A DNA stretch of 64,000 bases from Octopus vulgaris (taxonomy: Eukaryota), in NCBI GenBank assembly GCA_951406725.2, contig OX597827.1, forward strand, positions 64,108,001-64,172,000, read 5' to 3'. A program made the position numbers and the translations under genes. The notes beneath the pieces are model-generated. The model ran no database searches, was not told the DNA's origin, and was given only the letters and a program-made list of their open reading frames with translations. Below are positions 19,090 to 45,198 of the stretch, in pieces; positions within the stretch are counted from its first letter, which is position 1; the number at the start of each line of letters is the position of its first letter.

Positions 19090-19134
<45 letters not shown>

Positions 19135-19420: not shown

Positions 19421-19454
<34 letters not shown>

Positions 19455-19836
19455 TGTATGTATGTATGTATATATATGTATATTATATACAAAATAAGAA
19501 AATGGAGGAATAGATTATCAACTTCCAGATAATACCAATTCATATAATTTATTAACTAATTATTTAGATTATATTTAATCTAAATAAATTATATGAATAG
19601 GTATTATCTGGAAGTTGATGATTGAAAGAAATCTATTACTCCATTTTCTTATTTTGTATTATGAATTTGAGGTAAAACATTTTGCCTTCGTCCATATAAT
19701 ACAATAAATGAATTAATTGCATTGCAACTCTTAGCATTTATGTATTAGCCTTCTGGGTACTTTACTGGCAGTATATTGGATAAATGATATCCCATAGTGG
19801 GTTACACTCATAACCCCTATCTCACTTTGTATTATG

Positions 19837-19879
<43 letters not shown>

Positions 19880-19959
19880 CAAAATAAGCAACAAGGATAT
19901 CTAGAGGTAATTCAGTACGATCGTTTCAAGCAAATCCATTTAGTTGGACAATGCAAGCA

Positions 19960-20720: not shown

Positions 20721-21336
20721 ATTCTGATAATGATAATGATTTCCTACATAGATCTCAGTATATGACTGGTATAAATGGTATTTATTTCAGCAACTCCATC
20801 GCAGCGAGCCGGCCGAATCGTTACTGCTCCAAACAAAATGTTTGGCGGCTTTTCGTCGCTCTGAGTTCAAACTGCGCTGAGATTGACTTTGCTCTTTATT
20901 CTTCCGTGGTCGATAAAATTAATACCTGTTGAACACTGGTGTCGGTGTAATTGAATGACCTCCTCTCCTAAACTTTCAGGCCTTGCAACAACAGCAGAAA
21001 GAATTATTCATGAAGAGAGCTGGGAGATTAATAAGAATCTTGGACAAAAACCCTAGCGGCATTTCGTCTGACTCATTGTTTTGCGTTCAACTAACCCTGG
21101 GGACAACTTTTCAGTTTATCCTTTCGGAGGTCAATAAAATACAGTACCAGCCAAGTACTGGAGTTGATGTAATCGTCTTCCCTTCAAAACTGTTGGTCTT
21201 ATACCAAAATTAGGGAGAATCTCAACAATCTCCTCAGGATTAAAGACAAGGTCGACCTCTCTGAGTTTTGAATTTACATAACGGTATCTGTTAGGAAGCT
21301 CGTCATATATATACTTCCTAACACACACCCCATATG

Positions 21337-21421
<85 letters not shown>

Positions 21422-21573
21422 TAATAATAAAAAATGAACGAACTATTGAGTTTAGTTTAATGGCCTACCAATGTATACTATGAGTTTCTTTGCCCTAGGA
21501 GTCGGGAAGACACCCGGCAAGAAATGGAAGCAAATTTGAAAGAAGAAAAAAATAATAATAATAATAATAATAA

Positions 21574-21611
<38 letters not shown>

Positions 21612-22038
21612 ATGGGTTACAGCAAATATTCTGACCAATACCACAGACTTGCATGTCAGTTGTTTGACCTTAACCAGTTGAGCATGTCCCTTAGAGGCTG
21701 ACGATATGTGCATCTCCGATCACGAGCAGAAGTAGTGGGGGGGGGGGGCAGCATCATAACCATGTGTTGAGTGGGGAATCTTTGGGGGTTTGAATAATTC
21801 ACCTCTGGAAACATCCTTAAACAACTCTTATTCAGGGAACTTTTGAACGGGATGGGTTACTCGACCAGAAGAAAATTTCCAACTGGGCCCCACCTGCATA
21901 TCTTGATATGAAATCACCATATCGCGCGCACATATGGTTGTGATGCACGTGCCTGGTGTACACTTATCAGACGAGTAGTCTTCGTATATGTTGTTACTCC
22001 AGTGTCACTTTGATGGCATGCACTGCTCTCTCACTCAA
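21612..22038 (+). mobile_element. retroposon family D, 5'-truncated
   Basis: Homology; flanked by trinucleotide tracts. Confidence 0.82.
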
Positions 22039-22105
<67 letters not shown>

Positions 22106-22207
22106 GCTACTTCTACTACTACTGCTACTACTACTACTACCCCCACTACTACTACTACTACTGCTACTACTACTACTACCCCCACTACTACTACTACTAC
22201 TACCACC

Positions 22208-22289
<82 letters not shown>

Positions 22290-22290
22290 A

Positions 22291-22380
<90 letters not shown>

Positions 22381-22601
22381 CAATAATAATAATAATAATA
22401 ATAATGATAATAAAAAGTAACAACCAAAGAATGAGGCCTTGCTATTAGATAAATAGAGGATTATTTATGTATGTTATGATTTAGAACAAACAGTTAAAAG
22501 GTTGTCATTATAAAACTCGGAGTTTCGAACGTCGGAGCGAAGAGCTACGATGCATTCTCGTCGGCTATTAATGGCAACATTTATACGACGGGCTTCCTAA
22601 A

Positions 22602-22633
<32 letters not shown>

Positions 22634-22852
22634 ACAAGTCAGCAAAGAAATGTAAAAAAAAAAGGTGGAAGAAAAAGTACTGGAATACCAAAGGTAGAGT
22701 ATAATGGTATTTTGTTAAAGACACTTTTGATGAACGGTCACCTGAAGCTCTGAGTAACAGCATGTGAAAGTTTTTTTTTTTTTAAGCTCTAAAAAATAGT
22801 ATATTTATATGTGTGTGTTTGTACATGCAAGCATATGTATGTTTGTTTACCT

Positions 22853-23378
22853 GTATGTATGTATGTATGTATGTATGTATGCATGTATGTATGTATGTAT
22901 GTATGCATGTATGTATGTATGTATGTATGTATGTATGTATGTATGTATGTATGTATGTATGTATGTATGTATGTATGTATGTATGTATGTATGTATGTAT
23001 GTATTTACGTATGTATGTATGTATGTATGTATGTATGTATGTATGTATGTATGTATGTATGTATGTATGTATGTATGTATGTATGTATGTATTTACGTAT
23101 GTATGTATGTATGTATGTATGTATGTATGTATGTATGTATGTATGCATGCATGCATGCATGCATGTATGTATGTATGTATGTATGTATGTATGTATGTAT
23201 GTATGTATGTATATATGTATATATGTATGTATGCATGCATGTATGTATGTATGTATGTATGTACGTACGTATGTATGTATGTATGTATGTATGTATGTAT
23301 GTATGTATGTATGTATGTATGTATGCATGTATGTATGTATGTATTTATGTATGTATGTATGTATGTATATATATATGT
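22853..23378. repeat. (ATGT)n microsatellite
   Basis: Direct reading. Confidence 0.98.
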
Positions 23379-23767
23379 CATGGTATTTGTTTTTGTGCCC
23401 AACACCGCTTGATCACGGGTGGTTTGTTTACGTCACCGTGAGTTAATAACTCGACAAAAGGGACAAGACAGAATAAGTTTCAGCCTTAAAATAATTACTT
23501 GGGTTGACTGGTCCCACTAAATTCTTCAACGCGGTGCTCCAGCATGGCTACAGTTCAATAACTGAAGCAATTAAAATATATAAAAGGTAAATGGTAAGAG
23601 AAAAAATTTCGACTGCTGTTAGAATGTAAATGGGTACTTCAAACCGCGTACTATAAAAAATCCACGACCATTATGCGCTGTACACGACCATTATTCACAG
23701 ATATGTCACCGAGTGTGTGATAGTAGAAATTGTATTATTTTCACCTACATGGAACAGTGGAGTGCTG

Positions 23768-23990
23768 TGGCGAGCTAGCAGAAACGTTAGCACGCCGGGC
23801 GAAATGCGTAGCCGTATTTCGTCTGTCGTTACGTTGTGAGTTCAAATTCCGCCGAAGTCGACTTTGCCTTTTATCCTTTCGGGGTCGATAAATTAAGTGC
23901 CAGTTACGCACTGGGGTCGATATAATCGACTTAATACCTATGTCTGTCCTTGTTTGTCCCCTCTATGTTTAGCCCCTTGTGTGTAATAAA
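23768..23990 (+). mobile_element. SINE family C monomer
   Basis: Homology. Further monomers lie at about 12297-12508 (-) and 42474-42690 (+). Confidence 0.85.
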
Positions 23991-24188
23991 GGTACATCGG
24001 CTGAGTTTTAGTTCGTTGCTCCACTACACCAGTCGAACAGTGAACGAAATGACTTCTGGTGTTTCGTTACATTCTTTGGTATACCTATACAAATGTGCAC
24101 CCTAAGAATTTGTTTCCTCATAACTTAATGAATATTTTCTAATGAAATGTTTTACGAATTCCTTTCAGAAGGTGTATAGATTACGATT

Positions 24189-24576
24189 GGTGGAGGCGCA
24201 ATGGCCCAGTGGTTAGGGCAGCGGACTCGCGGTCATAGGATCGCGGTTTCGATTCCCAGACCGGGCGTTGTGAGTGTTTATTGAGCGAAAACACCTAAAA
24301 GCTCCACGACGCTCCGGCAGGGGATGGTGGTGATCCCTGCTGTACTCTTTCACCACAACTTTCTCTCACTCTTACATCCTGTTTCTGTTGTACCTGTATT
24401 TCAAAGGGCCGGCCTTGTCACTCTCTGTGTCACGCTGAATATCCCCGAGAACTACGTTAAGGGTACACGTGTCTGTGGAGTGCTCAGCCACTTACACGTT
24501 AATTTCACGAGCAGGCTGTTCCGTTGATTCGGATCAACCGGAACCCTCATCGTCGTAACCGACGGAGTGCTTCCAC
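24189..24576 (+). mobile_element. tRNA-derived SINE family A, full length
   Basis: A box TGGCCCAGTGG, B box GTTTCGATTCC, 11-bp TSD AGATTACGATT. Confidence 0.92.
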
Positions 24577-25241
24577 AGATTACGATTATATCGGAATTTA
24601 ATGTGTGATAAAAGAAAAAAGAAAATGGTGGAGGCGCGCTGATATATATTACATCCTTATTTACAAAAGAAAACTTGAAATTTTGAAAAAAAATCTGTGA
24701 CGTGTGTTAGTATATATATATATATATATATATATATTTGCGCACCCAACATTTTTATTCTTGTTTTACATTAAGTCCTCGTGCAATCGTTATCTACGTC
24801 ATCCTAAAGCTTTTTGCAGAAATTTCGTTTAAAAAATACCCGTGTTTCTGAAAGTTATTAGGAAACAAAGTCAACACGTTTGAATTATCCGAAACTATCA
24901 CCTTTCAAAAATCTACAGTTCTATATGAGGAATTATATACATTATTTACATTTGACAGATATTTGTCCTCATCTTGTTTGTTGTTAACACAACATTTCGG
25001 CTGATATACCCTCCAGCCTTCATCAGGTGTCTTGGGGAAATTTTGAACCTGGCGTAGTGGTTAAGAGCGCAGACTACTAACCTCAAGATTCCGAATTCGA
25101 TTCCATGTAGTGACTTGAATAATAATAATAGTCGTCGTCGTCGTCGTCGTCGTAGTAGTAGTAGTAGTAGTAGTAGCAGCAGCAGCAGCAGTAGTAGTAG
25201 TATTAGTAGTAGTAGTATTAGAATTAGTAGTAGTAGTAGTA

Positions 25242-25276
<35 letters not shown>

Positions 25277-25325
25277 TATTATTATTATTATAACATTGAA
25301 AAATACTTTAGGAATGAGAACCTAA

Positions 25326-25371
25326 AACACCTGATGAAGGCTGGAAAGTATATCAGCCGAAACGTTGTGTT
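25326..25371 (+). ncRNA. minimal type I hammerhead ribozyme (Penelope-type)
   Basis: AACAC CUGAUGA A GGCUG-loop-CAGCC GAAA CG UU GUGUU: stem I AACAC/GUGUU, palindromic stem III AACGUU. Inverted copies at 24986-25031 and 10365-10410 (the latter with GGAA). Confidence 0.75.
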
Positions 25372-25765
25372 AACAACAAACAAGATGAGGATAAATATCC
25401 GTCGAATGTAAATAATGTAAGTAAGATTCCGATATAATCGGAATATCCACCATCTGAAGAGCATTTGTAGAAAATTTCATTAGAAAATACCAAATTTTCT
25501 TTAAGTTATGAGGAAACAAATTTGGTCCTTAAGAATTAACCGAAATTCCTAACCCCGCCCCCGAAAAGATTTTTTGCAACAAATTCCGATTTAACGGAAT
25601 CTACATCATCTGGACGGTATTTGTAGAAAATTCCATCAAAGAATATTCGTTTCTCTAACAGCTATGAAGAAACCGTATGTAGAGGGTTACTCGTTTCTTC
25701 ACGAATCATAATTTAAATCCTGTTCCCCGAGTTAACATTGTTTTTCTTGCAGAATCATAGACAAC

Positions 25766-26165
25766 CATGGCTGTGTGGTAAGAAATTTGCTTCCTAACCA
25801 TATGGTTTCGGGTTCAGGCCCATTGCGTGGTACATTGAACAAGCGTCATTTACTATAGCCCCGAGTCGACGAAAAGCCTTGTGATGGATTTGATAGCATG
25901 AAAGCCTGTCGCGTGTGTGTATGTGTCTGTTTGTTTGTGCGTGTGTGTGTGCGTGTGTTTGTGTTTGTGTCTGTTTCCCACCGCTTGACAACCGGTGTTC
26001 ATTTGTTTCCGTCCCCATAACTTGGCAGTTCGGAGAAAGTGACCGATTGAATAAGAACCAAACTTCAAAAAAGCACCGGGATCGATTTGTTCGACTACCA
26101 CCCTTCAAAGCTGTGCTGCAGCTTGGCCGCGGTCCAATGACTGAAACAAGTAAAACATAAGAGAC
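25766..26165 (+). mobile_element. SINE family B, diverged
   Basis: Homology to the other copies. Confidence 0.75.
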
Positions 26166-26407
26166 TTCTTTTTAATTATGGTACAAAGCCAGCAATTTTG
26201 AGGAGAAGGGGCCAAATGGATTTTAAAAAAAGAAAAGAAAAAATACCCCAGTATGTGACTGTTACCACATTTTATCGTCCTCGAAATGCGAACTCGACCT
26301 CGGTGTGATTTGAGCTCAGAACGTAGAGAACTGGATGTAATGTCACTTAACATTTTATCCGACGTGCCAACGATTCTGCTAGCAGGCCACATTTGGCTAG
26401 TCAATAT

Positions 26408-26788
26408 GTGGAAGCACTCCGTCGGTTACGACGACGAGGGTTCCGGTTGATCCGATCAACGGAACAGCCTGCTCGTGAAATTAACGTGTGGATGAGCACT
26501 CCACAGACACGTGTACCCTTAACGTAGTTCTCGGGGATATTCAGCGTGACACAGAGAGTGACAAGGCCGGCCCCTTTGAAATACAGGTACACCAGAAACA
26601 GGAAGTAAGAGTGAGAGAAAGTTGTGGTGAAAGAGTACAGCAGGGATCACCACCATCCCTGCCGGAGCCTCGTGGAGCTTTAGGTGTTTTCGCTCAATGA
26701 ACACTCACAACGCCCGGTCTGGGAATCGAAACCGCGATCCTACGACCGCGAGTCCGCTGCCCTAACCACTGGGCCATTGCGACTCCAC
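26408..26788 (-). mobile_element. SINE family A, full length
   Basis: Near-identical to 24189-24576, with 13-bp TSD GGCTAGTCAATAT. Confidence 0.92.
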
Positions 26789-27016
26789 GGCTAGTCAATA
26801 TACCACTTGTAACGTGGGGAAGCGTTGGTAGGTGAAAGTCTTGTAACAGAGGATAAAAAACAAATGACTCATGATTGTAAGGGAGGTAATCCTGTATGAA
26901 TGTGAAATCTTAATCTTTTCTAAAAAAGTGAGAGTAGTCTCCCTTTGATTCATGTCCCGTTGCTTTTTTTTTTTATCAGTGCACACCCGCATTGTCATGT
27001 TATCGTGACGTGTAAA

Positions 27017-27426
27017 TCTATCTTTATATATAAAAGTCAAGTTGTGAGTCTGTCTCCTACGATTTAGATTCCTAACTACTCCCACATTTTGCGGTGCAGT
27101 TTTACCAAAACCGGGTATCTTATAGTCGTGATTCATATCGAGCCCTTCTGGGTATTAGCGCGCGTCTACGATGAGTCTACGTTGAGTCTACGATTTAAAA
27201 AAAAATTACCATAATTTTTTCCCATTTTAATGCATTTTCGCTATTATATAAGGGAAGTAACTCTCTAAACATGTCTACGATGAGTCAACGATTTAAAAAA
27301 AATTTACCATAATTTTTTTTCCATTTTTAATGCATTTTTTTTGCTACTTTTTGGCTATAACTCTCTAAAAATGCTTATATAGTTATTTCCCTTACAAACC
27401 CGAGCAACGCCGGGCGATACTGCTAG
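27017..27426 (+). mobile_element. non-autonomous Helitron
   Basis: A|TC start, subterminal hairpin CCCG.GCAACGCCGGG, CTAG|T end, no TSD. Confidence 0.85.
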
Positions 27427-27611
27427 TTTATTATAAGAGCGAAGATCACATTTGTTTCTCGCTTCTTTATGGTGCAAAATATTAACGTCACCTATGGAAA
27501 TTTCTGTTAGAATTAATGTAGAGCCTCATATAGGCTTCATTACGAGTGAAAAATATCAGCCTATCTGTCTGTCTGTCCGTCTTTCTCGCCCACTGTCTTT
27601 TTATTATATTT

Positions 27612-28118
<507 letters not shown>

Positions 28119-28278
28119 AAAGTTAAATGCGATACAATAAAATTAATTATTATCGCCGGTGTTCTTAGCACACGCCATATATTATTCATATATAAGTACA
28201 TTAAAAGGCGAAGTGTGTACTAGATACACAAAAGCTGGATAAATTTAATGAGATGAAAATTAAAAACTTTTACATATG

Positions 28279-28309
<31 letters not shown>

Positions 28310-28314
28310 GTATA

Positions 28315-28390
<76 letters not shown>

Positions 28391-28431
28391 TGTATGTATG
28401 TATCTAAGCTATCTATCTATCAATCTATCTA

Positions 28432-28486
<55 letters not shown>

Positions 28487-28502
28487 ATACAAACATACAT
28501 AC

Positions 28503-28534
<32 letters not shown>

Positions 28535-29160
28535 CATCATCATCATTTAACGTCCGTTGTCCACGCTGGCATGGCTCAGACGGTTTGACGGGGCTGGCAC
28601 GCTGGAAAGCTGCACCAGACTCCGGTCTGATTTGGCAAGGTTTTCTCCGGCTGGATGCCCTTTCTAACGCCAGCCTCTCTGAGAGCGTAATGGGTGCTTT
28701 TACGTGCCTCTGGCAAGGATGCTATTTGCGTGACACCAGAGTGATTTTACGTGCCACCGGCACGTGTGCCAATTAGAATGACACCGGTATCTGTCACGAC
28801 TGCGATTTTGATCGGTTCGATAGGTTTTCTTCTCAAGCACGACATAATGCTAAATGTCTGGGTCCTTTCGAGCTTTGGTCCTCCGTGAGGACCAAAACTT
28901 GAAAGGAACTCAGTCACTTTGCCTCCGTGAGGCCCAACGCTCGAAAGGTGTTCTTTATGTGCCACCGGCATGGGTGCACTTGGTCTGTCGGGTCCTCTCA
29001 TGCACAGCACATCGCCAAAGGTCTCGGTCACTAGTCATTGCCTGTGAGTTTCAAAGTTCAAAGATCATGCTTCACCACCTCGTCCTATGTCTTCCTGGGT
29101 CTGCCGCTACCACAGGTTCCCTCCACGGTTAGAGATTGGCATTTCTTTACACAGCTGTCC
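28535..29160 (-). mobile_element. RTE-clade LINE 3' end with (GAT)n tail
   Basis: VEGTCGSGRPRKT.DEVVKHDL...DRDLWR C-terminal motif. A related tail fragment lies at about 32183-32330. Confidence 0.7.
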
Positions 29161-29310
29161 TATATATATTTATATATATATATGTGCCTGTGTATACATA
29201 TACATACATATATAAATACATACATACATACATACATACACATACATACATGCATACACATATACACATATATACATACATACATACATACATACATACA
29301 TACACACACA

Positions 29311-29344
<34 letters not shown>

Positions 29345-29884
29345 CATACATACATACATACATACATACATACACACACACATACGTACATACATACATA
29401 CATGCATACACATACATACATACGTACATACATACATACACACACATACATACATACATACATGCATACATATATACATACATACATACATACATACATA
29501 CACACACACATACGTACATACATACATACATGCATACACATACATACATACATACATACATACATACATACATACATACATACATACATACATACATACA
29601 TACATACATACACACACATACATACATACATACATACATACATGCATACACACACATACATACATAGATACATACATACATGCATACATATATACATACA
29701 TACATACATACATACATACATACATACATACATACATACACACATACATACATACATACATACATACATACATACATACACATACATACATACATACATA
29801 CATACGTACATACATACATACATACATACATACATACATACATACATACGTACATACATACATACATACATACATACATACATA
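29161..29884. repeat. (TACA)n microsatellite
   Basis: Direct reading. Confidence 0.98.
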
Positions 29885-30135
29885 AATTTTAAGAATGAGA
29901 TAAAAATCCAAGGCTGTGAAATCCAAAGATTTCAGAACATTTATAAAGAGAAGGTCTTACAGCTCTTTCCGGGATATTTTATTTATCTCTTCGGCGGAGA
30001 CGGTATGAGAAAATGGTTAAGCAATAGTTATTCTAGAGAAGATATGAAATAGAGAATGAAGTGGTGGGACGAAAATAGACGTGAGATATGCAGGGATATT
30101 GTATCTGTAATTCCATTATTTAAGCAGAATGGTAT

Positions 30136-30545
30136 TACTCTCTTTACTCTTTTACTAGTTTCAGTCATTTTGACTGCGGCCATGCTGGAGCACCGCCTTT
30201 AGTCGAGCAAATCGATCCCGGGACTTATTCTTTGTAAGCCCAGTACTTATTCTACCGGTCTCTTTTGCCGAACCGCTAAGTGACGGGGACGTAAACACAC
30301 CAGCATCGGTTGTCAAACAATGCTAGTGGGGACAAACACAGACACACAAACATACACACACATATATATATATATACATATATACGGCAGGCTTCTTTCA
30401 GTTTCCGTCTACCAAATCCGCTCACAAGGATTTGGTCGGCCCGAGGCTATAGTAGAAGACACTTGCCCAAGGTGCCACGCAGTGGGACTGAACCCGGAAC
30501 CATGTGGTTGGCAAGCAAGCTACTTACCACACAGCCACTCCTGCG
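30136..30545 (-). mobile_element. SINE family B, full length
   Basis: Homology to the other copies. Confidence 0.88.
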
Positions 30546-30927
30546 GTATATATAAGATTCCTGTACCTTGTCTGTAAGTTCCAATAGTATTTAAAATTGG
30601 TCATTCCAATCATAGAGGGTTTGGCACTTTCTCACAAAGTACAGGAATCTGTGGCAAGATGGTAAGTGAAAGGTTGAAATTCATCATGGCTGAAATTTAC
30701 ACCCCCGCAAAAAATCCCACCAAAATCTCAGTCTTGTACTCTGTTTTTTTTTCGTTGTTTGAAAAAAAAAGTTCGTTTCCATGTTTTTGTTTGTATATTT
30801 TCGTTTCTCATTGTGTTCAACGATTTTTTTTTATGTCCTGTACCCATATATGCATGTATATATATACATATAGATGTAGGTATGTACATATATGTATGTA
30901 TATATGCATATATTTATACATTTTATA

Positions 30928-30989
<62 letters not shown>

Positions 30990-31018
30990 GTAGAAATATG
31001 TTACAAACATAGAGTATA

Positions 31019-31073
<55 letters not shown>

Positions 31074-31321
31074 GAAATATGTTACAAAAAGAAAATATAA
31101 GATACACGTGGAAATGTAAGGGTAAAATATGAAAAATCAACGAAAATGCACATTGCAAATAGAAAAAAAGACTTTTCATGACAGGTAACGACAAATATAT
31201 ACATTTAGATGGACTGAGGTAGAAATAAGAGTCATAAAATATATATATATATATATAATTGACAGAATGAGATAAAATATCCAAGACTGTAAATAGTTTT
31301 CAGAATATTTATAAAGAAAAG

Positions 31322-31369
31322 GTCTTACAGCTGTTTCTGGGATATCTTAGATATCCCTTCATCAGAGAC
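31322..31369 (-). ncRNA. minimal type I hammerhead ribozyme
   Basis: GUCU CUGAUGA A GGGAUAUC-UAA-GAUAUCCC A GAAA CAGCUG UA AGAC. Confidence 0.7.
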
Positions 31370-31594
31370 GGTACGAGAAAATGTTTAAGTAATAATTATT
31401 GTAGAGAAATGATATGAAATACAGACGGAAGCACAAGAGAATGAAAATAAAAGTGAGATACATAAGGATATTATATTTGGTTCATTCCAAGCAGAGATCC
31501 TTGTAGATAGTGTTGTTGTTTGATCGAAGGGGTTTTTGGTGGGAATTTGGGAATGAAATGTGTTTGTAATATTAAGGGATAGACGGCGGGAGGA

Positions 31595-31654
<60 letters not shown>

Positions 31655-31655
31655 G

Positions 31656-31806
<151 letters not shown>

Positions 31807-32131
31807 TACATGCATACATATATATGTACATGTGTGTGTGTCTATATATGCATGTATATTATATAAATATAAAGGTATTTTTATGCACACACACATTTAC
31901 ATTGATACATATGGCAGAAGGGGCCTTTGGGCGCTCTGGTGTACAATAGGAGATACTCACCCTAAGTGGGACTGAACCCGAAACCACGCGGTTACGAATC
32001 AAATGTCTGCAACACGGATTCGTTCGTGAAATTCTTTCTTTCTTTTTTCTTTTTATTTCGTTATCATTTTTTCATTGGACCTTAGACTACAACTGAAGTA
32101 CGATAGCCTTAATAATAATAATAATAATAAT

Positions 32132-32186
<55 letters not shown>

Positions 32187-32634
32187 TCGTCGTCGACGTT
32201 TAACGTCCGCTTTCCATGCTAGCATGGGTTAGAAGATTTGACTGAGGACTGGCGAACCAGATGACTGCACCAGGCTCCAATCTGATCTGGCAGAGTTTCT
32301 ACAGCTGTCTGCCCTTCCTAACGCCAACCACTGTGAAAGCGCATGGCTTAGTGGTTAGGGTGTTGCACTCACGATTTCGAGATCGTGGGTTCGATTCCCA
32401 GACCGGGCGTTGCGTTGAGTTCTTGAGCAAAGCACTTCATTTCTCGTTGCTCTGACATTTGGCACCCTTCGCACCTGTACAGGTAATGTCAATCTGATGG
32501 AAGGAGTGAGCTTATGTCCACACAAACATTTGATCACTATTAACAAATCATCTGTGTGGTTGTTCGGTAAGAAATTGTCAAATCCTCATACTTCGTCTAA
32601 CGACAAGGGAGTCCACGATATATATAGATTCTTT

Positions 32635-33003
32635 GGAAGCACTCCGTCGGTTACGACGATGAAGGTTCCGGTTGATCCGATCAACGGAACAGCCTGCTCG
32701 TGAAATTAACGTGTAAGTGGCTGAACACTCCACAGACACGTGCACCCTTAACGTAGTTCTCGGGGATATTCAGCGTGACACAGAGAGTGACTAGGCCGGC
32801 CCTTTGAAATACAGGTACAACAGAAACAGGAAGTAAGAGTGAGAGAAAGTTGTGGTGAAAGTGTACAGCAGGGATCACCACCATCCCCTGCCGGAGCCTC
32901 GTGGAGCTTTAGGTGTTTTCGCTCAATAAACACTCACAACGCCGGGTCTGGGAATCGAAACCGCGAGTCCGCTGCCCTAACCACTGGGCCATTGCGCATC
33001 CAC
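32635..33003 (-). mobile_element. SINE family A
   Basis: Homology to the other copies. Confidence 0.9.
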
Positions 33004-33047
33004 AAACAGACACACACACACACACACATATATATAAATATATATAC

Positions 33048-33082
<35 letters not shown>

Positions 33083-33088
33083 AAGAGA

Positions 33089-33135
<47 letters not shown>

Positions 33136-33305
33136 GAGTAAACACATAAATGTGAAACAAGGTGGGAAAAAGGTACTCAAATACCAGGGTAGAGTAATAT
33201 GCTTTATTTAAAAGCAGCAGAAATTCAACAAAACCTGTCACTCGGAGTTTCACGTTTCCGTTCGTCGGACAGATTCACAGTTGTCGTCGGACAGTTTTGT
33301 TAAAA

Positions 33306-33343
33306 CTGTCCGACGAATGGGAACGTGAAACTCCGAGTAACAG
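33306..33343 (+). ncRNA. hammerhead-like motif with CCGACGA core; inverted copy at 33235-33272
   Basis: CUGU CCGACGA A(U/C)G-G(G/A)AA-CGU GAAA CUCCGAG U(A/G) ACAG. Confidence 0.55.
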
Positions 33344-33375
33344 GTTTTGTTGAATTTCTGCTGCTTTTGAATAAA

Positions 33376-33458
<83 letters not shown>

Positions 33459-33536
33459 TATATATATATTAGAAGAAATGAGGTAATCAGAAGACCGGAT
33501 GGTTCATATTTATAGATATTTATTTATATATAAAAG

Positions 33537-34626
33537 TTTTGATCTCTTTCGGCACCCTCTTTTATCTCTGTCGGCACGCTCTTTGATCTCTATCGGCACC
33601 CTCTTTGATCTCTTTCGGCACCCCTCTTTGATCTTTGTCGGCACCCTCTTTGATCTCCGTCGGCACCCTCTTTGATCTCTTTCGGCACCCTCTTTGATCT
33701 CTGTCGGCACGCTCTTTGATCTCTGTCGGCACCCTCTTTGATCTCTGTCGGCACCCTCTTTGATCTCTGTCGGCACCCTCTTTGATCTCTTTCGGCACCC
33801 TCTTTGATCTCTTTCGGCACCCTCTTTGATCTCTGTCGGCACCCTCTTTGATCTCTGTCGGCACCCTCTTTGATCTTTGTCGGCACCCTCTTTGATCTCT
33901 TTCGGCACCCTCTTTGATCTCTTTCGGCACCCTCTTTGATCTCTGTCGGCACCCTCTTTGATCTCTGTCGGCACCCTCTTTGATCTCTGTCGGCACCCTC
34001 TTTGATCTCTTTCGGCACCCCCTTTGATCTCTTTCGGCACCCTCTTTGATCTCTGTCGGCACCCTCTTTGATCTCTGTCGGCACCCTCTTTGATCTCTGT
34101 CGGCACCCTCTTTGATCTTTGTCGGCACCCTCTTTGATCTCTGTCGGCACCCTCTTTGATCTCTGTCGGCACCCTCTTTGATCTCTTTCGGCACCCCTTT
34201 GATATCTTTTGACACCCTCTTTGATGTCTGTCGGCATCCTCTTTGATCTTTGTCGGCACCCTCTTTGATCTCTGTCGGCACCCTCTTTGATCTCTGTCGG
34301 CACCCTCTTTGATCTCTGTCGGCACCCTTTTTGATATCTTTCGGCACCCCTCTTTGATCTCTTTCGGCACCCTCTTTGATATCTGTCGGCACCCTCTTTG
34401 ATCTTTGTCGGCACACTCTTTGATCTCTGTGCGCACCCCTTTTGATCTGTTTCGGCACCCCCCTTTGATCTTTGTCGGCATCCTCTTTGATCTCTGTCGG
34501 CACCCCTCTTTGATCTCTGTCGGCACCCTCTTTGATCTCTGTCGGCACCCCTCTTGGATCTTTGTCGGCACCCTCTTTCATCTCTTTCGGCACCCCCTTT
34601 GATATCTTTCGGCACCCTCTTTGATC
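33537..34626. repeat. 22-bp minisatellite CTCTTTGATCTCTGTCGGCACC, about 49 units, in Vax intron 1
   Basis: Direct reading. Variants are mainly TCTC/TCTT and TGTCGG/TTTCGG. Confidence 0.97.
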
Positions 34627-34821
34627 GTGCCATACTATATGGGATGTTTCTTTTTGTCTCTGGGATGGGTGGCAGGAGTGGAAATTTGTCGGCATTGATG
34701 TGTGTCAGTTTTTTGTAGTGGATGTCTGTTGTGACGATGGAGTTGTGTATTTTGATGTTGTGATGTCTAGGAAGGGGCAAGTTCGTTGTGGCTGGTATCT
34801 CTCTCTCTCTCTCTCTCTCTG

Positions 34822-35335
34822 TATATCTGTCGGAACCCTCTTTGATCTATGTCGGTACACTCTTTGATATCTTTCGACATAGCAAGTTTGATCTTTGATC
34901 GGCACCTCTTTGATCTCTGCAGCGTGGAAGGTGTTTGTACACCCTCTTTGATCTCTGTCGGCACAAAAGCCTCTTTGATTCACTTCAACATTTTGATCTC
35001 TGTCGGCACCATTTTGATATCTTTCGGCACCCTCTTTGATCTCTGTCGGCACCCTCTTTGATTCACTCGGCACTTTGATCTCTGTCAGCACCCCTCTTTG
35101 ATCTTTGTCGGCACCCTCTTTGATCTCTGTCGGCACCCTCTTTGATCTCTTTCGGCACCCCGTTGATCTCTGTCGGAATCTTTGATCTCTTTCGGCACCC
35201 TCTTTGATCTTGTCGGCACCCTCTTTGATCTCTTACACCCTCTAATTTGACTAAATGTATGTATAATTGATCTCTGTCGGCATCTTTGATAATCTTTCGG
35301 CAGTTTTTGATCTCTGTCGGCACCCTCTTTGATCT
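34822..35335. repeat. degenerate continuation of the 22-bp minisatellite
   Basis: TTTGATC and TCGGCA modules recur with irregular linkers and short inserts. Confidence 0.85.
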
Positions 35336-35544
35336 AGCTTTTGAAAGTGTACATTCTTTCACAATTCCGCTGCAAACACTCCCTGATGTTGATGTCAGAA
35401 CATAAAAGAAAAGATGATTAAAAATATACGCCCTATTCTAGTGACAAAATTAAAGTCGACGATGACGAAGAAATAAAGGTAAACGACAACGCAATCAAAA
35501 CTGAAGATAAAGAAACTGAGGCAGGTAATGACAAGTTTGAGGGG

Positions 35545-36036
<492 letters not shown>

Positions 36037-36689
36037 AATGTATATATATACATACCTACATATATATGTATGTATACATGCATATATGGGTACCGGACGC
36101 CGAAAGAAACGTGAACAAAGTGAAAAATGAGAATATAAAAAACAAAAACATGGAAAACGAAAGAAACAAACAGGGAAGCGAGACAGGCAACATAAAGAAC
36201 ATTCCCTTCATCAGTTGTCCCCTATTTTATCTACTCCGCGTTTCGAACGTCGGGACAAGACGCGACTTCTTTAAAACAGTCGTTCCCGCAAAACAAAGCA
36301 AATAAAATTTGAGATTTGCGGAGGGTTAAAGTGGTAACAAAAACAGGACAGTGAGAACAAAACAGTAAAAGCAAACGGTAAGGGCTGTTAAGCCATCTCG
36401 AGGTGAAGTGGTGAACGCTGGAGCAACGAGCTCTGACAGGAAACAGGCAACGTTGGAAACGCGGAATAGATAAAACAAGGGACAGCTGATAAAGGGATTG
36501 TTCTTTATGTTGCCTGTCTCGTTTCTCTATTTGTTTCTTTCGTTGTTTAAAAAAAGTTCCTTTTCCATGATTTTGTTTTTTTAAGTTCTCGTTTTTCATT
36601 TTGTTCGCGGTTTTTTGACGTCGTGTAACCATAAATGCATGTATATACATATATATCTAGGTATGTGCGTATATGTATGTATGTATATA

Positions 36690-36761
<72 letters not shown>

Positions 36762-36849
36762 CATATGAACGACCGTCACGCATCCACTTCCAAGTAATTT
36801 TTATCTATCTATCTTTCTATCTATCTATCTGTCTGTCTGTCTGTCTAAA

Positions 36850-36997
<148 letters not shown>

Positions 36998-37108
36998 CCT
37001 CGCTCGCTTAGCCAGCGGGGTGGCGTCATTCGAGGGCTAAAACAATGCGAACGCATTGTGACCAGCGATGTGTAGCAGCATCTGATGGTCTGGTCGGTCG
37101 CGTGATCG

Positions 37109-37173
<65 letters not shown>

Positions 37174-37281
37174 CAGCGTGTCCTCCTATCCAAATATATA
37201 CACACTTTAACAGCTAAAAACTCCCTTCATTTTCATTTATTTTTAGAAACAAAGAATGGTTGGAGACAAACCTTTGGGCAA

Positions 37282-37708
37282 ATGAACGCGCAAAGAATTC
37301 ATCAGAACTGTCAGATTTTCAAAGAGGGGCGTATTGTTGTGCGGTCTGAGGCTGGTCTTAACCAGCGAAAAATTGCCGAAAATCTTCAAATTCCTCTTGC
37401 TACTGTTAATAGAATTATAGTGCAATTCAAAAGTCAAGGAAAAGTATCAACAGATTCTCGTCCCGGCTGACCTGGGCCCTCGGAAAGGAAGCTTCGCTGT
37501 TTGAAGAGAATTGTTGAAACGAACCCCATTCGAAGGCTTCTGACATTGCAAAACAGCTGGAAGTTAGTCCAAGAACGTATGTTACAAATCTGCATAAGCT
37601 TGGGTATTATGGACGAGCAGCTAGAAGAAAACCTCTCCTTCAACCAATTAATATCAAATTAAAGATTTTGAAAATTAAAGGTGTCTATTTACTTCCTGCA
37701 TGTCTGTG
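37282..37708 (+). mobile_element. internally deleted, 5'-truncated copy of the same Tc1 element
   Basis: Homologous to about 16590-16935, then jumps to the right TIR ending CTGTG|TA. Confidence 0.85.
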
Positions 37709-37781
37709 TATATGTAAAAAAAATTCTTTTTTTTATTTTATCAGTGGCCAAAATATACAAAGACGAATAATTAAGGTGAAA

Positions 37782-38291
37782 TCTATATATATAAAACTGT
37801 AGTTGTGTGAGTGTCTGTCCCCTTCGATTTAGATTCCTAACTACTCCCACATTTTGCGGTGCAGTTTAACCAAATTCGGGTATCTTATAGTCGTGATTCA
37901 TATCAAGCCCGTCTGAGTATTAGCGCGCGTCTACGATGAGTCTACGATTTTAAAAATAATTTAACATCATTTTTTATTCCATTTTAATGCATAATTTTTC
38001 GTGTGTCGATGGCGGCGGAGTTGGCGTCCATGGTCACACCTGCACCTGTGTTCTCCCCCTTCTTCCCTCCCTCGTGAAGCTGTTGGAAAGGGAGTGTAAG
38101 GAAATCAACGTCGTAAAGCGTTGTCAAGGAGACCAGCGTTCTTTTAGAACAACGACTTCATGTCTTGAAGACACCAAAACAGAAATGGCTAAGAAAGCCC
38201 GAATTGGCATCTATAAGGGAAGTAACTCTCTAAAAATGCTTATATAGTTATTTCCCTTACAAACCCGAGCAACGCCGGGCGATACTGCTAG
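37782..38291 (+). mobile_element. non-autonomous Helitron, same family, different interior
   Basis: A|TCTATATATATAAAA start, same hairpin and CTAG|T end. Both ends are homologous to 27017-27426. Confidence 0.87.
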
Positions 38292-38301
38292 TTATACATA
38301 T

Positions 38302-38776
38302 AATTATAATAAGGCCGTTTGAAAGAAATTTTCTAGCCTATATGCTAAATCGTCCCACTACTAAGGAAGTCACAAACACATGTGTTGAATTAGACACAAC
38401 AAGCTAACGGAAATTATTAATATAATAGATAGCTCTGGATTAGATAATTTCTGGATCTGGCCCATGGCTTTTCATTCATCGGCAGGATATACATAGGAAA
38501 TAAATGAGATATTATACATGAGATTTTTATACATACCCCTGTGGGTATGTATATATAACTCATGTTTCCTATGTATGTCCTGCTGATGAAGGTAAAGCCG
38601 CGGGGTAGACCTAGAAATTAGCTAATCCAGGGCTATCTATTATATTAATAATTTTCGTTGGCTTGTTGCGTCTAATTCAACACGCGTTTGTGACTTCTTT
38701 AGTTGTGGGACGATTTAGCGTCTATTTCTCAGCATATAGGCTAGAAAATTTCTTTCTAACGCCCTCATTATAATTA
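38302..38776. repeat. about 475-bp imperfect hairpin (inverted Penelope-type terminal repeats)
   Basis: Arms align in reverse complement around about 38540. Confidence 0.85.
38579..38631 (+). ncRNA. minimal type I hammerhead ribozyme
   Basis: CCUG CUGAUGA AGGU...ACCU A GAAA UUAGCUAA UC CAGG. Confidence 0.65.
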
Positions 38777-38808
38777 TATATATATATATATATATATATA
38801 CCTACATG

Positions 38809-38866
<58 letters not shown>

Positions 38867-39075
38867 TATATATATATACACACGCATATAATTTACATAA
38901 ATACAAAAGAGAAAGAGAGGTGTCAGAACAACAAACAGGTGTATTAGTTTAACGTTCGGGAAAAACGGAAAAGTTTTTTACGTTTCGAGCCTATGCTCTT
39001 CGAGAGAAAATATTCAGATACATATATAAATACACACAGACACACACACACACACACACACACATACATACATAC

Positions 39076-39106
<31 letters not shown>

Positions 39107-39128
39107 CATACATACATACATACATACA

Positions 39129-39162
<34 letters not shown>

Positions 39163-39624
39163 AATAAATAAATGGAGTTAAACATACAAAATATTTCACA
39201 TCAACCCGAAGTTTCTACCATTACAAACAGGGTGTTACGTCCTTTTTACTTGTGCGCTTTTTTGCTGCCCTGGTAACTGTTTATCTTTTTTTTTTCCATG
39301 TTAATTGTAAACAAGGGGAAAATACACACATCCATTTATACATCCATACATATACATATACATAAACATACATACATACATACATACATACATACATACA
39401 TACATACATACATACATACACACACACACATATTATGTACTGTTCCGTGATGGTAAAATTAATAAAAAAAGAAGTACTCCATCTGGAGAGAGATAAATAT
39501 TATTAGATAAACACAATCTATATTTTTATGGGTTACTAATAGTTTATTAGTCTATCTGGATGTTTTGTTGTCCCTTTTCGTATCACCTAGTTGTCCGAAT
39601 GTTTTGCGTTCTTGTCCCATTTTG

Positions 39625-39711
<87 letters not shown>

Positions 39712-39764
39712 GGATCGTTAGCTCCTACACGCATTTTTTTCTTTCCTTGTTTCTTTTCTGTGTA

Positions 39765-39802
39765 TCTTTCTGTCGAAGAGCGTAGGCTCGAAACGTAAAA
39801 GA
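39765..39802 (+). ncRNA. hammerhead-like motif with CUGUNGA core; copies at 51670-51707 (+) and 53856-53893 (-)
   Basis: UCUUU CUGUCGA A GAGC-GUAG-GCUC GAAA CG UA AAAGA. Confidence 0.6.
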
Positions 39803-39898
39803 CTTGTTTTATTTCTATTCCTGAGCGCCATACTAATACAATTGTTTGTTTGTACTCCACCTGCCTTCGTCTTTTGCTTATTTTCGTAAACCTTCCTG

Positions 39899-39937
<39 letters not shown>

Positions 39938-40407
39938 GCGGCGTACGTACACTTTGTTCTCTTACATACATGCATGCATACATAGATACATACATACATA
40001 CATACATACATACATACATACATACATACATACATACATAGTGGTAAATAGCTATCGAGAAATCTGCAGTTATTCTATCCAGATTACAAGTTCAGGTTTA
40101 TACCTGAAATTAGGTGCCACGCAGTGGGACTGAACCCGGAACCATGTGGCTGGTAAGCAAGCTACTTACCACACAGCCACTCCTACGCCTATTATATATA
40201 CATATATGTGTATACACACACACACACACACGCACACACACATAAATGTGTATGTATGTATATATATATATGCGTATGTGTGTGTATGAATATATGAGCA
40301 TACATGTGTATGTCGGTAAGCTCCTAGTTCAATCCCACTACACCGGACCTTGGGCTCCGGCCTTCCATTGTAACCTCAATTCGATCAACCGTTTTAGAAT
40401 TGAAGCT

Positions 40408-40449
<42 letters not shown>

Positions 40450-40738
40450 TGTGTGTGTGTGCATATATGTGCTTATGTTTACGTTATTTTCAAAAACGTG
40501 TTTTTGTACCGTCAATTTCAATCATCTAACCTAGCTGTTCGACAAAGGATCGATAAAAGAAGTGCCGGACTAAAAGATGCCCTGAACATATGATGAACTA
40601 AAACCTTTGACGGCGGTGCTACAGCGTGGCCACATTCTACTGATTAAAACCATTAAAACGGCGAAAATGGATGGATGTGCGTGTGTGTCTGTCTGTATTT
40701 ATGTAAGTATATGTGTATGTGTGTGTGTGTTTGTTTGT

Positions 40739-42040
40739 CAGGGCCGGATTAAGACCCATAGAGGCCCTAGACCAGTGCTTTTCAAACTTTTTGCTGGAGC
40801 GGAACCCCAAGGAAACATTCCACTGGCTCGAGGAACCCCTGTGCAATAATTTAATAGTTTTATGCACACATATCTGCACAGGAGAATTAAAAATTACTGC
40901 CGATCTTAGCAGTTTTGTAACTTCTTGCGGAACCCCTGGACTGTACTGGCGGAACCCTGGTTGAAAACCACTGCCCTAGACACTTAAAAGGTTTTGGTGC
41001 CCTCAAATATACGTAAATGGTTTAAAATGGAAACAGAAATAATTCAAATTGTAAACGATAATAAACCATAAATTCAATTTATATTTTTCAAAATGAAACA
41101 AAATTTACAGTTAGACGGAAAATAATGTTTATTTTCCTATCCTTCTATTTTATTTATATTTGAAAAGTTTTCTCCTTCGTTGATATCTTTAGAATTAATT
41201 TTACGTAAAACTTTTGCTTCTGTATTTCATTTTCGGATTTGGTTTGCAAGATTCTTTATATGAGTTTGTGTGTTGAAGCATATTCTGTTGTGTCTGGGGA
41301 GAGTCATTTTCTTTTTGTGTCTTATAATGTAACACACTCACCGGTAAAATTTCCACTTATTTCTTATTTTTATTTTCCTAAAATTTTCGTTGCGTCTTGC
41401 AACCTTTTCAACAGCATTGAAAAGGTTGCAAGACTATTGAAAAAGGTTCAAAACTATCGAAAAGTTTGCAAGACGCAACGAAAGTTTTAGGAAAATAAAA
41501 ATAAGAAAAAAGTGGAAATTTTAGCGGTGAATGTGTTAAATTATAAGGCACTAAAAGAAAATGACTCTCCCCCAAACACAACAGAATCTGCTTCTATACT
41601 TTGTAGAAATAAGGCATTACGAATATTATTGGCATTCCTTCGATATAACTCGACTAAATCAAAACATTTCACTTCGGATATTTCCGTGGGTTGTGGAGTA
41701 TAGATATAACGAAATTATGCCAGCAATGTCTCATTTTAAACTTGAAGGAAAAAAAGCCTTGCATATTTGTTTCTTACTTGTTTCATGTGTGTATGTAAAA
41801 TCCGCAAATTTCCAAGCAGAAAACAGAATCGAACTGTCATTTGCTTCCGCGCAAATACCCGAAGTGAAATGTTTTGATTTTGTCGAGTTATATCGAAAGA
41901 ATGCCATATTATTATTGCAAGTTTAAAGGGATTTCTTTTGTGCCGTAAACGATTTTCATTTCTGTGGTGCCCCCTCCTTCCCTGGATGCCCTAAGCACAT
42001 GCTTATTTTGCTTAATGGGTAATGAGTTAATCCAGCGTTG
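40739..42040. mobile_element. older hAT-like non-autonomous element hosting nested insertions
   Basis: CAGGGCCGGATTAA ... TTAATCCAGCGTTG termini and a 6/8 TSD-like flank match. Confidence 0.55.
40773..40973. mobile_element. hAT (Charlie-like) MITE
   Basis: TIRs CAGTG.TTTTCAA and a perfect 8-bp TSD CCCTAGAC (40765-40772 / 40974-40981). Confidence 0.9.
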
Positions 42041-42093
42041 GTGTTTATCCCTTTTTTGTATCACCTGTGTGTGTGTATATATATATATGTATA

Positions 42094-42137
<44 letters not shown>

Positions 42138-42148
42138 GTATATATATG

Positions 42149-42265
<117 letters not shown>

Positions 42266-42292
42266 CATACGCTATATATATGTATATATATG

Positions 42293-42324
<32 letters not shown>

Positions 42325-42325
42325 G

Positions 42326-42453
<128 letters not shown>

Positions 42454-43535
42454 CGCTATATATATATACATACGCTAGCAGAAACGTTAGTAGGCCGGGC
42501 GAAATGCGTAGCCGTATTTCGTCTGCCGTTACGTTCTGAGTTCAAATTCCGCCGAGGTCGACTTTGACTTTCATCCTTTCGGGGTCGATAAATTAAGTAC
42601 CAGTTACGCACTGGGATCGATATAATCGACTTAATACTTTGTCCTTGTTTGTCCCCTCTATGTTTAGCCCCTTGTGGTTAATAAAGAAATATATACATAC
42701 ATATCCTTTTATTCTTTCCCTTGTTTCAGTCATTTGACTGTGGCCATGCTAGAGCACCGACTTTAGTCGGGCAAATCGACCCCAGAACTTATTCTTTGTA
42801 AGCCTAGTACCTATTCTATCGGGGTATTTTGCCGAACCGCTAAGTTACGGGGACGTAAGCACACCAGCATCGGTTGTCAAGCGATGTTGGGGGGACAAAC
42901 CCAGACACACAAACATACATACACACACAAACATATAATTCGTCTCCAGTCGAAAGACGCCTGTTGTGATGTCCTGTCATTATTATAATTATTGTTTTTT
43001 TGTATTATTTTTGTATTTATATTCGTGTAACATCGTCCGTTTTTCCGTCCTTGTTTGGTATACATTCGAAACTCTTTTCCAAGGAATCTAATGCTCTTAG
43101 CTTAGTTTTTCCTTGGGGCTGGCCAGATTGGAGCAATCTTAAGATTAATCAGCCGAAATTGCGTGGATGATCTGGTTCTTGACAGGAGATTAAAGGCTTC
43201 GAATGATACGTTCGTGTTTTTTGTATCGTCTATCTGGATGTTTTGCGTTCTTGTCCCATTTTGTATTTATATATATATATATACACAGGACGGGCTTCTT
43301 TCAGTTTCCGTCAACCAAAAACACACACAAGGCTTTGGTCGGCCCGAGTCTATAGTAGAAGACACTTGCCCAAGGTGCCACGCTGTGGAACTGAACCCGG
43401 AACCATGTGGTTTTAGTTGGGAAGCAAAGTATATTTGTGTATGTATGTTTGTATAAATGTGTGCGTGTATATATATTTGTATACACATAGACACACACAT
43501 ATATATATATACAAGCATGGACATATCCATATATA

Positions 43536-43573
<38 letters not shown>

Positions 43574-43615
43574 TGTACACAAACACACGCTCACACACAC
43601 TCGCGCGCACATATT

Positions 43616-43682
<67 letters not shown>

Positions 43683-43728
43683 ACATACATATATATATGT
43701 ATATATATATATGTATATATATATATGC

Positions 43729-43897
<169 letters not shown>

Positions 43898-44133
43898 TGT
43901 GTGATCGAGTGTGTGTGTGCATGTGTACATGTACCTATATATATATTTTTTTTTCTTGGTGCATAATTATTGAGGCTTGTTTTTTTTTCAACAAATTTTA
44001 ATCAACAAAAACAATAACAATATTTAACAAAACATCTTTAAATGATCATCTGCCGAGCAAATTGGAAGTAGTAATTGAAGGAGATGGTGAATATGCTCCG
44101 GAATAATCATTTAAAGTTTATGCATCAACCCAA

Positions 44134-44212
<79 letters not shown>

Positions 44213-44344
44213 ATATATATATATATAATTTTAATCCAAACGGGAAAACAGAAAAAACAACAACACGTGGAACAGTTACAGTATGATTATTAATAGGCGC
44301 TCAGGAAAATGTACATATATATCTACATTCATGTATATGTATGC

Positions 44345-44429
<85 letters not shown>

Positions 44430-44441
44430 CTCGCGCGCACA

Positions 44442-44564
<123 letters not shown>

Positions 44565-44969
44565 TTGTATATATATACATATACACATATATATAGATAC
44601 ATGTATACGTGTATACATATACATATATATAAAAATGTATGTATACATATGCATATATACATACATATACATATGTATATAAACATATAAATATATATAT
44701 GTGTGTGTGTGTGTGTACTCTCATGTGTAAAATATCGCATGCGTATGAAGAGTACATGGTAAACGATAACACATACACACATATAATAAATAAATAATGA
44801 AGTTATTGTATACAGTGCTCAGGTGCTCAGGTGCACCACATATATATACACACATACATACATACATACAGACAGACAGACACACACACGGTCGAAATAA
44901 TTGTTTCTGCGCCACCCAATTCAGAAAATGACTAAGAAACGAAAGACAAGACAAGACAAAACAACGAAC

Positions 44970-45198
44970 CTTTGATGGTCATCGTCCGACAATAGTCCGG
45001 GTATTTTCTTCGGGGGCCCGTTTCCGTGTTCATACTCGCCTCGTGGTCATCGTACTGACCGCAGCTACTGTTGCTGCTGCTGTTGATATTGCTGCTGATG
45101 CTGCTGCTGTTGTTGTTGTTGTTTGTGTTGTTGTGACTGTGGTTGCTGTTACTGTTGTTGTTATTATTATTATTATTGTTAATTGCTGATTTGGCCAT
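44970..45198 (-). CDS. Vax: Vax homeobox gene, first identifiable coding exon (MAKSAINNNN...GPRRKYPDYCRTMTIK)
   Basis: ATG at 45198 gives 76 codons + 1 nt, then donor G|GTTCGT at 44969. Phase 1 matches the exon 2 acceptor. YPDYCRTMTIK-D-ANG aligns to the Vax motif PDYCRRILVR-D-AKG. The start codon is uncertain because the frame is open upstream. Confidence 0.8.

Follow-up and report, generated by a model that had tools for sequence, protein, structure and literature searches.

A 22-bp tandem array with TCF-type and Helper-like motifs in intron 1 of octopus Vax is probably one copy of a high-copy minisatellite

Is a tandem array of TCF-type sites in the intron of a developmental homeobox gene a Wnt-responsive switch for that gene, or is it repeat cargo? 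The question is raised by a 22-bp array in Octopus vulgaris, found in a stretch of 64,000 nucleotides of contig OX597827.1 (hereafter, the window). The preliminary description of this DNA placed the array in intron 1 of Vax, about 10 kb downstream of exon 1, and proposed that it could be a copy-number-tunable Wnt element for the gene. The identity of the gene and the position of the array were confirmed. Vax is encoded on the minus strand of the window. Coding exon 1 (44970..45198) ends in a phase-1 GT donor, and its translation corresponds to the N-terminal 76 amino acids of the O. vulgaris Vax protein P0015. Exon 2 (12627..12814) encodes homeodomain positions 1-43 (Pfam PF00046, E 4.6e-12) and is 100% identical to P0001, an O. 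vulgaris protein annotated as "ventral anterior homeobox 2-like"; 10 of the 14 homolog matches of this exon bear Vax names. The coding part of exon 3, including the stop (8531..8737), matches the C-terminus of both P0001 and P0015, and the three exons joined reproduce P0015. Intron 1, delimited by the exon ends (12815..44969), spans 32.2 kb and contains many SINE-like repeats, microsatellites and retroelement scraps according to our repeat scans; the array lies 9.6-11.4 kb below exon 1. Long GTG/GGT triplet repeats (45064-46350) abut and overlap the 5' end of Vax exon 1; the encoded product begins with a poly-Asn/Ser tract, and the O. sinensis Vax model (P0016) has a different first exon. In vertebrates, Vax2 acts upstream of Tcf7l2 and not as its target, so that TCF sites in Vax are not predicted. 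Our literature search found no source for a link between Vax and Wnt, and the word "Vax" is absent from PMC8651982.

Tandem Repeats Finder detected a period of 22 with 49.3 copies and 91% matches at 33538-34626, and degenerate period-22 rows also at 34940-35322. By wrap-around alignment, positions 33537-34617 consist of 49 full 22-bp units followed by a 9-base stub, in agreement with the roughly 49 clean units counted initially. Within this clean array (33537..34626, plus strand) the first 30 units are very clean. It is followed by an insert that was overlooked in the first reading (34627..34797), by a (TC)n microsatellite of 12 units (34797..34820, plus strand), and by a ragged tail (34822..35335, plus strand) in which about 21 unit-like pieces stand amid unique sequence. 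The interval 34822-35340 contains 21 TTTGAT, 13 CTTTGATC and 13 Helper matches. All units are oriented the same way, head-to-tail: a single strand carries 53 of 53 CTTTGATC and 62 of 62 TCGGC in the array region, and CTTTGATC occurs three times in the window outside it.

On the plus strand, an 11-bp HMG-type site is followed in the unit by a 7-bp Helper-like motif in reverse orientation and a spacer of 4 bp; the motifs thus take up 18 of the 22 bases. The HMG core CTTTGWWS has 41 matches over the 49 units, 40 of which are CTTTGATC. The full 11-bp consensus given in PMC4154663, SCTTTGWWSWW, failed at the outer positions, with T at position 1 in 45/50 sites and C at position 11 in 41/49. Among the Helper-like motifs of the clean array, 46 match the worm consensus GCCRAnW (as given in PMC3916239), which both Helper variants of the array fit, and none is exact to the fly consensus GCCGCCR, missed at Helper position 5 in every unit; these consensuses come from worm and fly and may not be those of a mollusc. 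According to PMC3916239, the C-clamp is carried by most invertebrate TCFs. Each HMG-type site forms a KK0 pair with the Helper that follows it and an AK4 pair with the Helper that precedes it, where AK is read as a reversed Helper upstream, as taken from the text of PMC4154663. The clean array holds 35 AK4, 4 AK5 and 38 KK0 pairs. The same source describes AK0-6 and FF0-2 as the geometries most enriched in DNA bound by fly TCF, and ranks AK6 and FF0 best in vitro with KK0 intermediate; the pair geometry of the clean array falls within the favoured AK0-6 class. The motif counts therefore bear out the original claim that the unit contains a TCF HMG-type core and a Helper-like motif, with a pairing (AK4/AK5/KK0) better than had been claimed. 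From these motifs, the 22-bp unit is predicted to bind TCF in vitro.

How often would such a pair arise by chance? In simulations, the 8-bp HMG core together with a Helper was found in 245 of 3,000,000 random 22-mers at the GC content of the window (8.2e-5), in 485 of 3,000,000 at 50% GC, and in 504 of 1,500,000 unit-shuffled 22-mers (3.4e-4), giving a chance of about 1 in 3,000 to 12,000 per random 22-mer. The HMG-Helper pair is unusual, yet it was singled out post hoc among many pairs of motifs that could have been picked.

It had also been stated that the common variants of the unit leave the motifs intact. Units 2-49 comprise 19 distinct substitution alleles in 48 copies, and two or three common unit variants are interspersed along the array. 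The two commonest (15 and 7 copies in units 2-49) do leave both motifs intact; across all alleles, p ranges from 0.014 to 0.70 depending on how the core is defined and how alleles are counted. For the 12 core columns of the preliminary description (CTTTGAT plus GCCGA), 8 of 19 alleles fall inside versus 10.4 expected (p=0.195), and a copy-weighted column permutation gives p=0.014, a value obtained with a core that was defined once the variants were known, and due to two alleles that had multiplied by duplication. With the 8-bp HMG core, p=0.36 by alleles and 0.058 weighted by copies; with the published sites taken in full, the values are 0.70 and 0.68, respectively. The sparing of motif columns by the variants is not robust. 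Neither did the proposed helical phasing of the sites hold beyond neighbouring units: at 10.5 bp per turn, a 22-bp period drifts by 34 degrees per unit, that is, by 4.7 turns over the array.

Aiming to learn how widespread the unit is, we searched the array words of window positions 33693-34196 across 24 listed sequencing runs. They were present in 20 runs, 13 of which contain half or more of the words. These 20 runs come from nine studies and four coded organisms (A 15, B 2, C 1 and D 2 runs), although the codes need not be four distinct species. No RNA run is among the listed runs with array words, and six small "RNA?" rows (shares 0.27-0.55) were left out of the abundance evidence. One run per coded organism (X3, X2, X4 and X8; 4 of the 20) was aligned at 80% likeness to positions 34560-35545, a comparison that covers the end of the clean array, the insert, the tail and the right flank. 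The aligning contigs numbered 5,877 in X3, 5,687 in X2, 2,711 in X4 and 863 in X8, contigs of the retroelement insert included. On the unit bases 35121-35153, summed depth reached 2,050,510 in X3, 1,358,872 in X2, 485,533 in X4 and 36,091 in X8. The unique right flank (35343..35545), which has no other copy in the window and served as a single-copy yardstick, had depths of 34.6, 54.7 and 10.7 in X3, X2 and X8, with no X4 contig there. The ratio of unit to flank depth is thus about 3,400-59,000 (3,373-59,263 in the three runs), a rough figure, as summed contig depth does not equal copy number. Converted to repeat amounts allowing for contig overlap, with an assumed mean length of 31-60, this corresponds for X3 roughly to 0.13-2 Mb, or 79-1,224 times the array at the Vax locus (about 1.6 kb); for X2, to 0.05-0.8 Mb (32-500 times); and for X8, to 6-100 kb (4-62 times).

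A second line of evidence came from proteins. An open frame of the array finds P0017 (CAI9722894.1; E 5e-70), a hypothetical protein of O. vulgaris that is a translated spacer variant of the 22-bp unit, and the sole such protein among 8,000 scored candidates. P0017 is likely a spurious gene model. Its array lies on a contig of 147.5 Mb, and Vax on a contig of 84.7 Mb. A coding role for the open frames of the array was considered and rejected, since the translated unit was found only in P0017 of 166 proteins examined; the other phmmer matches (169 at E<=0.001, 150 listed) are, among the matches listed, unrelated repetitive proteins. The 22-bp unit therefore forms a family of high copy number, with two or more unlinked arrays, one of them on another chromosome-scale contig, and specificity to the Vax locus did not hold. 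The satellite fraction of O. vulgaris, as described in PMC13282606, is alike in its head-to-tail short unit, high abundance and more than one chromosome-scale location. The same source reports 80 satellite families totalling 87.5 Mb (3.12%), in a genome of which 66% is repeats, and the 22-bp family may already be catalogued among them. A full-text search of papers with 15-mers of the unit gave no match, and our search of the literature on octopus minisatellites and satellites found no description of it. The unit pattern had 0 matches in metagenome contigs, viral contigs and prokaryote genomes, as expected for an octopus repeat and uninformative on its dispersal.

The sequencing runs also offered a view of the right edge of the array in other alleles. 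Three runs (X3, X2 and X8) each contained one single-copy right-flank contig (370, 363 and 363 letters), aligning to 35250-35545 with 22-23 differing letters and 13-14 gaps. These contigs extend 48-56 letters toward the array without fitting the ragged tail, and the last units are missing from them in 3/3 runs covering the right flank. The preliminary count of about 20 degenerate units is right for the window, where about 21 unit-like pieces are present, but the last of these pieces are not found in the single-copy flank contigs. Among the 40 of 79 difference rows listed, differences cluster at 35280-35342 and touch HMG and Helper columns. In X3 the window has the unit's letter at 9 of 11 listed differences, which is no enrichment, since most window letters in this stretch agree with the unit. 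At 35306, 35334 and 35342, the window is unlike all three flank contigs. Regarding variation in array length at Vax, the right edge differs in the three runs, and short-read contigs give no lengths. Unit-like letters also appear within the insert, as a 10-mer (34685-34694) that is absent from all aligned depth at 34690 in the four runs; the junction between array and insert is bridged by 0 of the 32 listed contig pieces (of 15,348). Letters of the unit standing singly within unrelated sequence suggest a consensus blend of an allele with the array and an allele without it. The ragged tail is probably such a blend, in which assembly mixed array letters into unique sequence, and the ragged half of the array may not exist in real chromosomes.

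The same observations could be taken further, to the array being misplaced as a whole, with high-copy reads merged over a retroelement remnant and unique sequence. The missing 10-mer, the three window letters shared with no flank contig and the lack of a bridging piece among those listed are all consistent with this, as is the fact that nanopore and 10x reads were used to build the public O. vulgaris reference (PMC13282606). However, a real allele would be expected to be as clean as the first 30 units are, the mosaic edge is equally well accounted for by a heterozygous insertion, and short-read contigs cannot span arrays of this kind. We consider wholesale misplacement very unlikely.

Because the 22-bp repeat is very abundant elsewhere in octopus DNA, the array is likely a passenger and not a switch built for Vax. 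We conclude that it is probably one copy of a high-copy octopus 22-bp minisatellite, likely neutral, and recent or polymorphic at this locus. The HMG-Helper pair belongs to the unit of the repeat family and is not tuned for Vax. The array shows the hallmarks of a minisatellite, namely a head-to-tail unit of 10-60 bp, an abundance far above that of one locus and more than one genomic location, and it does not show the specificity to one locus, at an orthologous place, that characterizes a Wnt module. The neutral VNTR containing both motifs, which the preliminary description kept as a fallback, fits better than a Vax element, except that the repeat is a genome-wide family and no private VNTR. 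As to how the array came to be, units would multiply and homogenise by slippage and unequal exchange, and arrays would reach new sites by break-repair copying or within a mobile element. One such array may then have landed in the 32-kb Vax intron against Penelope-type scrap, in a genome that is two-thirds repeats.

A Vax-specific enhancer or silencer, tunable by copy number and kept by selection in intron 1, would in turn accord with the location in a developmental homeobox gene and with the motif pair and its geometry. Two findings of the kind that the preliminary description had named as refuting speak against it: the unit is high-copy with unlinked copies, and the flank contigs of all three covering runs lack the last units. 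Moreover, a 32-kb intron in a 66%-repeat genome is an ordinary landing place, and helical phase is lost along the array. A single copy of an abundant repeat can still acquire a function by co-option; for this array we regard the Vax-specific reading as highly improbable.

The sequence next to the array is itself repetitive. The insert that splits the array (34627..34797, minus strand) appears to be a frameshifted, high-copy fragment of a Penelope-type reverse transcriptase (RT). By three-frame translation, its three minus-strand frames resemble the C-terminal part of such an enzyme; its summed depth is mostly 10^3-10^4, and its loose ends in X2 and X8 run on as RT-like sequence. In Penelope-like elements, which are high-copy, C-terminal RT motifs are followed by a GIY-YIG domain; the assignment of the insert to them is putative and based on RT-like motifs in its translation. 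The insert had no match in Pfam, in the homolog search or in Atlas. An origin of the 22-bp unit in the continuation of this fragment was rejected, as the X2 and X8 loose ends continue unlike the unit. To the left of the array lies a long, near-perfect palindrome of 185 nt (33197..33381; self-match 85%, fold z -23.9), followed by (TA)n (33377-33469); between this and the first unit is an AT-rich piece of 67 bp. The palindrome arms are reminiscent of the hammerhead-like cores at the ends of Penelope elements; Rfam, however, found no hammerhead on the palindrome, and its 29 matches at E<=5 over 32500-36500 were all below gathering score and nearly all on AT microsatellites. Further repeat sequences occur in the window: a degraded GIY-YIG endonuclease frame of Penelope type at 3751-4098 on the minus strand (Atlas 0.95-0.96 to PF01541 clusters, no Pfam match); upstream of Vax, at 61678-63741 on the plus strand, a 687-aa open frame with a reverse transcriptase domain (RVT_1, E 1.8e-29), which is a rather well preserved LINE piece; and a SINE-like repeat that recurs across the window and is arranged at 17974-18709 as four 184-bp copies in tandem (94% matches).

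A mobile carrier of the unit is also conceivable. In this reading, which overlaps with the minisatellite explanation as one possible carrier, the unit would be a subterminal transposase-binding repeat of a DNA transposon of CACTA/CMC or hAT type and the array its orphaned or expanded end, and the GC-rich and AT-rich make-up would serve a transposon protein, not TCF. Plant CACTA (En/Spm-type) subterminal repeats are alike in being short motifs with a GC-rich and an AT-rich part (PMC2613891), and PMC13282606 reports 22 CACTA-Mirage-Chapaev families in O. vulgaris. Elsewhere in octopus DNA, a CCGGTTTG-type sub-repeat adjoins arrays of the 22-mer (in loose ends at 35095 in X2 and X4, and at residues 25-65, towards the N-terminus, of P0017), which hints at a structured carrier element. 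At the Vax locus, however, the CCGGTTTG-type sub-repeat is missing, the units are not in both orientations, and we found no terminal inverted repeat, CACTA/CACTG end, 3-bp target duplication or transposase, the longest flank matches being of 8-9 bases and involving unit letters. We deem a transposon end unlikely. As for a Merlin carrier, the accessible text of PMC8101967 gives 191 Merlin sequences in O. bimaculoides, none linked there to the 22-bp unit.

If the array is a passenger at Vax, might the family as a whole matter? Thousands of HMG-Helper pairs could soak up TCF or donate Wnt-response modules, with Vax as one recipient. The AK4/KK0 geometry argues for this, as does a pair chance of 8e-5 to 3e-4 per 22-mer; multiplied by 80 satellite families, it amounts to a 0.7-3% chance, before other motif pairs that a reader might spot. 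The unit is, moreover, common to the four coded organisms. Counting against a family-wide role, satellites often lie in closed chromatin, the outer HMG positions mostly depart from the consensus, and the sparing of motifs among unit variants is not robust. According to PMC4154663, fly TCF binding gained somewhat from any Helper near an HMG site, yet all seven Helper positions mattered in the fly test, and position 5 is off the fly consensus in every octopus unit.

Known systems provide further points of comparison. HMG-Helper modules of Drosophila and C. elegans such as nkdIntE and nkdUPE2 (PMC4154663, PMC3916239) share with the octopus unit the CTTTGATC core, a GCCRAnW-type Helper and AK4/AK5 plus KK0 pairs, although the octopus unit is inexact for the fly Helper and the outer HMG positions. 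Those modules, as described, are a few degenerate pairs in unique DNA, whereas the octopus array consists of about 50 near-identical motif pairs in a genome-wide repeat. TOPFLASH and POPTOP reporters have the same multimerised near-consensus HMG sites; in contrast to the octopus array, with about 50 copies and Helpers 10 kb inside an intron, they are artificial and place 3-16 copies by a basal promoter. A natural counterpart is the VNTR of the human IDO1 promoter, reported in PMC3181322, which likewise has a TCF/LEF site in a minisatellite-length unit (24 bp), a site bound by LEF-1, which counts in favour of binding by the octopus family. Unlike the octopus repeat, it is present in one or two copies at a single promoter locus and is supported by ChIP, and its copy number left reporter activity unchanged, an observation that counts against a role for the octopus family. 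Overall, we consider a family-wide TCF-binding role quite unlikely.

For Vax itself, the array is probably ordinary repeat cargo in a large intron, and the point of interest is the 22-bp family, not its Vax copy. TCF motif scans of octopus genomes will be distorted by the unit, and at least one gene model, P0017, already appears to be a spurious product of it. According to the TCF papers, natural Wnt modules lack dense clusters of near-perfect sites; the octopus repeat is such a dense cluster, in bulk and with Helper motifs in favoured spacing. It is a doubtful but conceivable prospect that the high-copy unit acts as a ready-made bipartite TCF site, a "natural TOPFLASH" serving as a genome-wide Wnt sink or module seeder. 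If so, there would be thousands to tens of thousands of pairs, compared with the roughly 2,000 TCF peaks of one fly embryo data set, and Wnt signalling would be buffered, or Wnt-response modules would be seeded into new genes such as Vax by repeat turnover.
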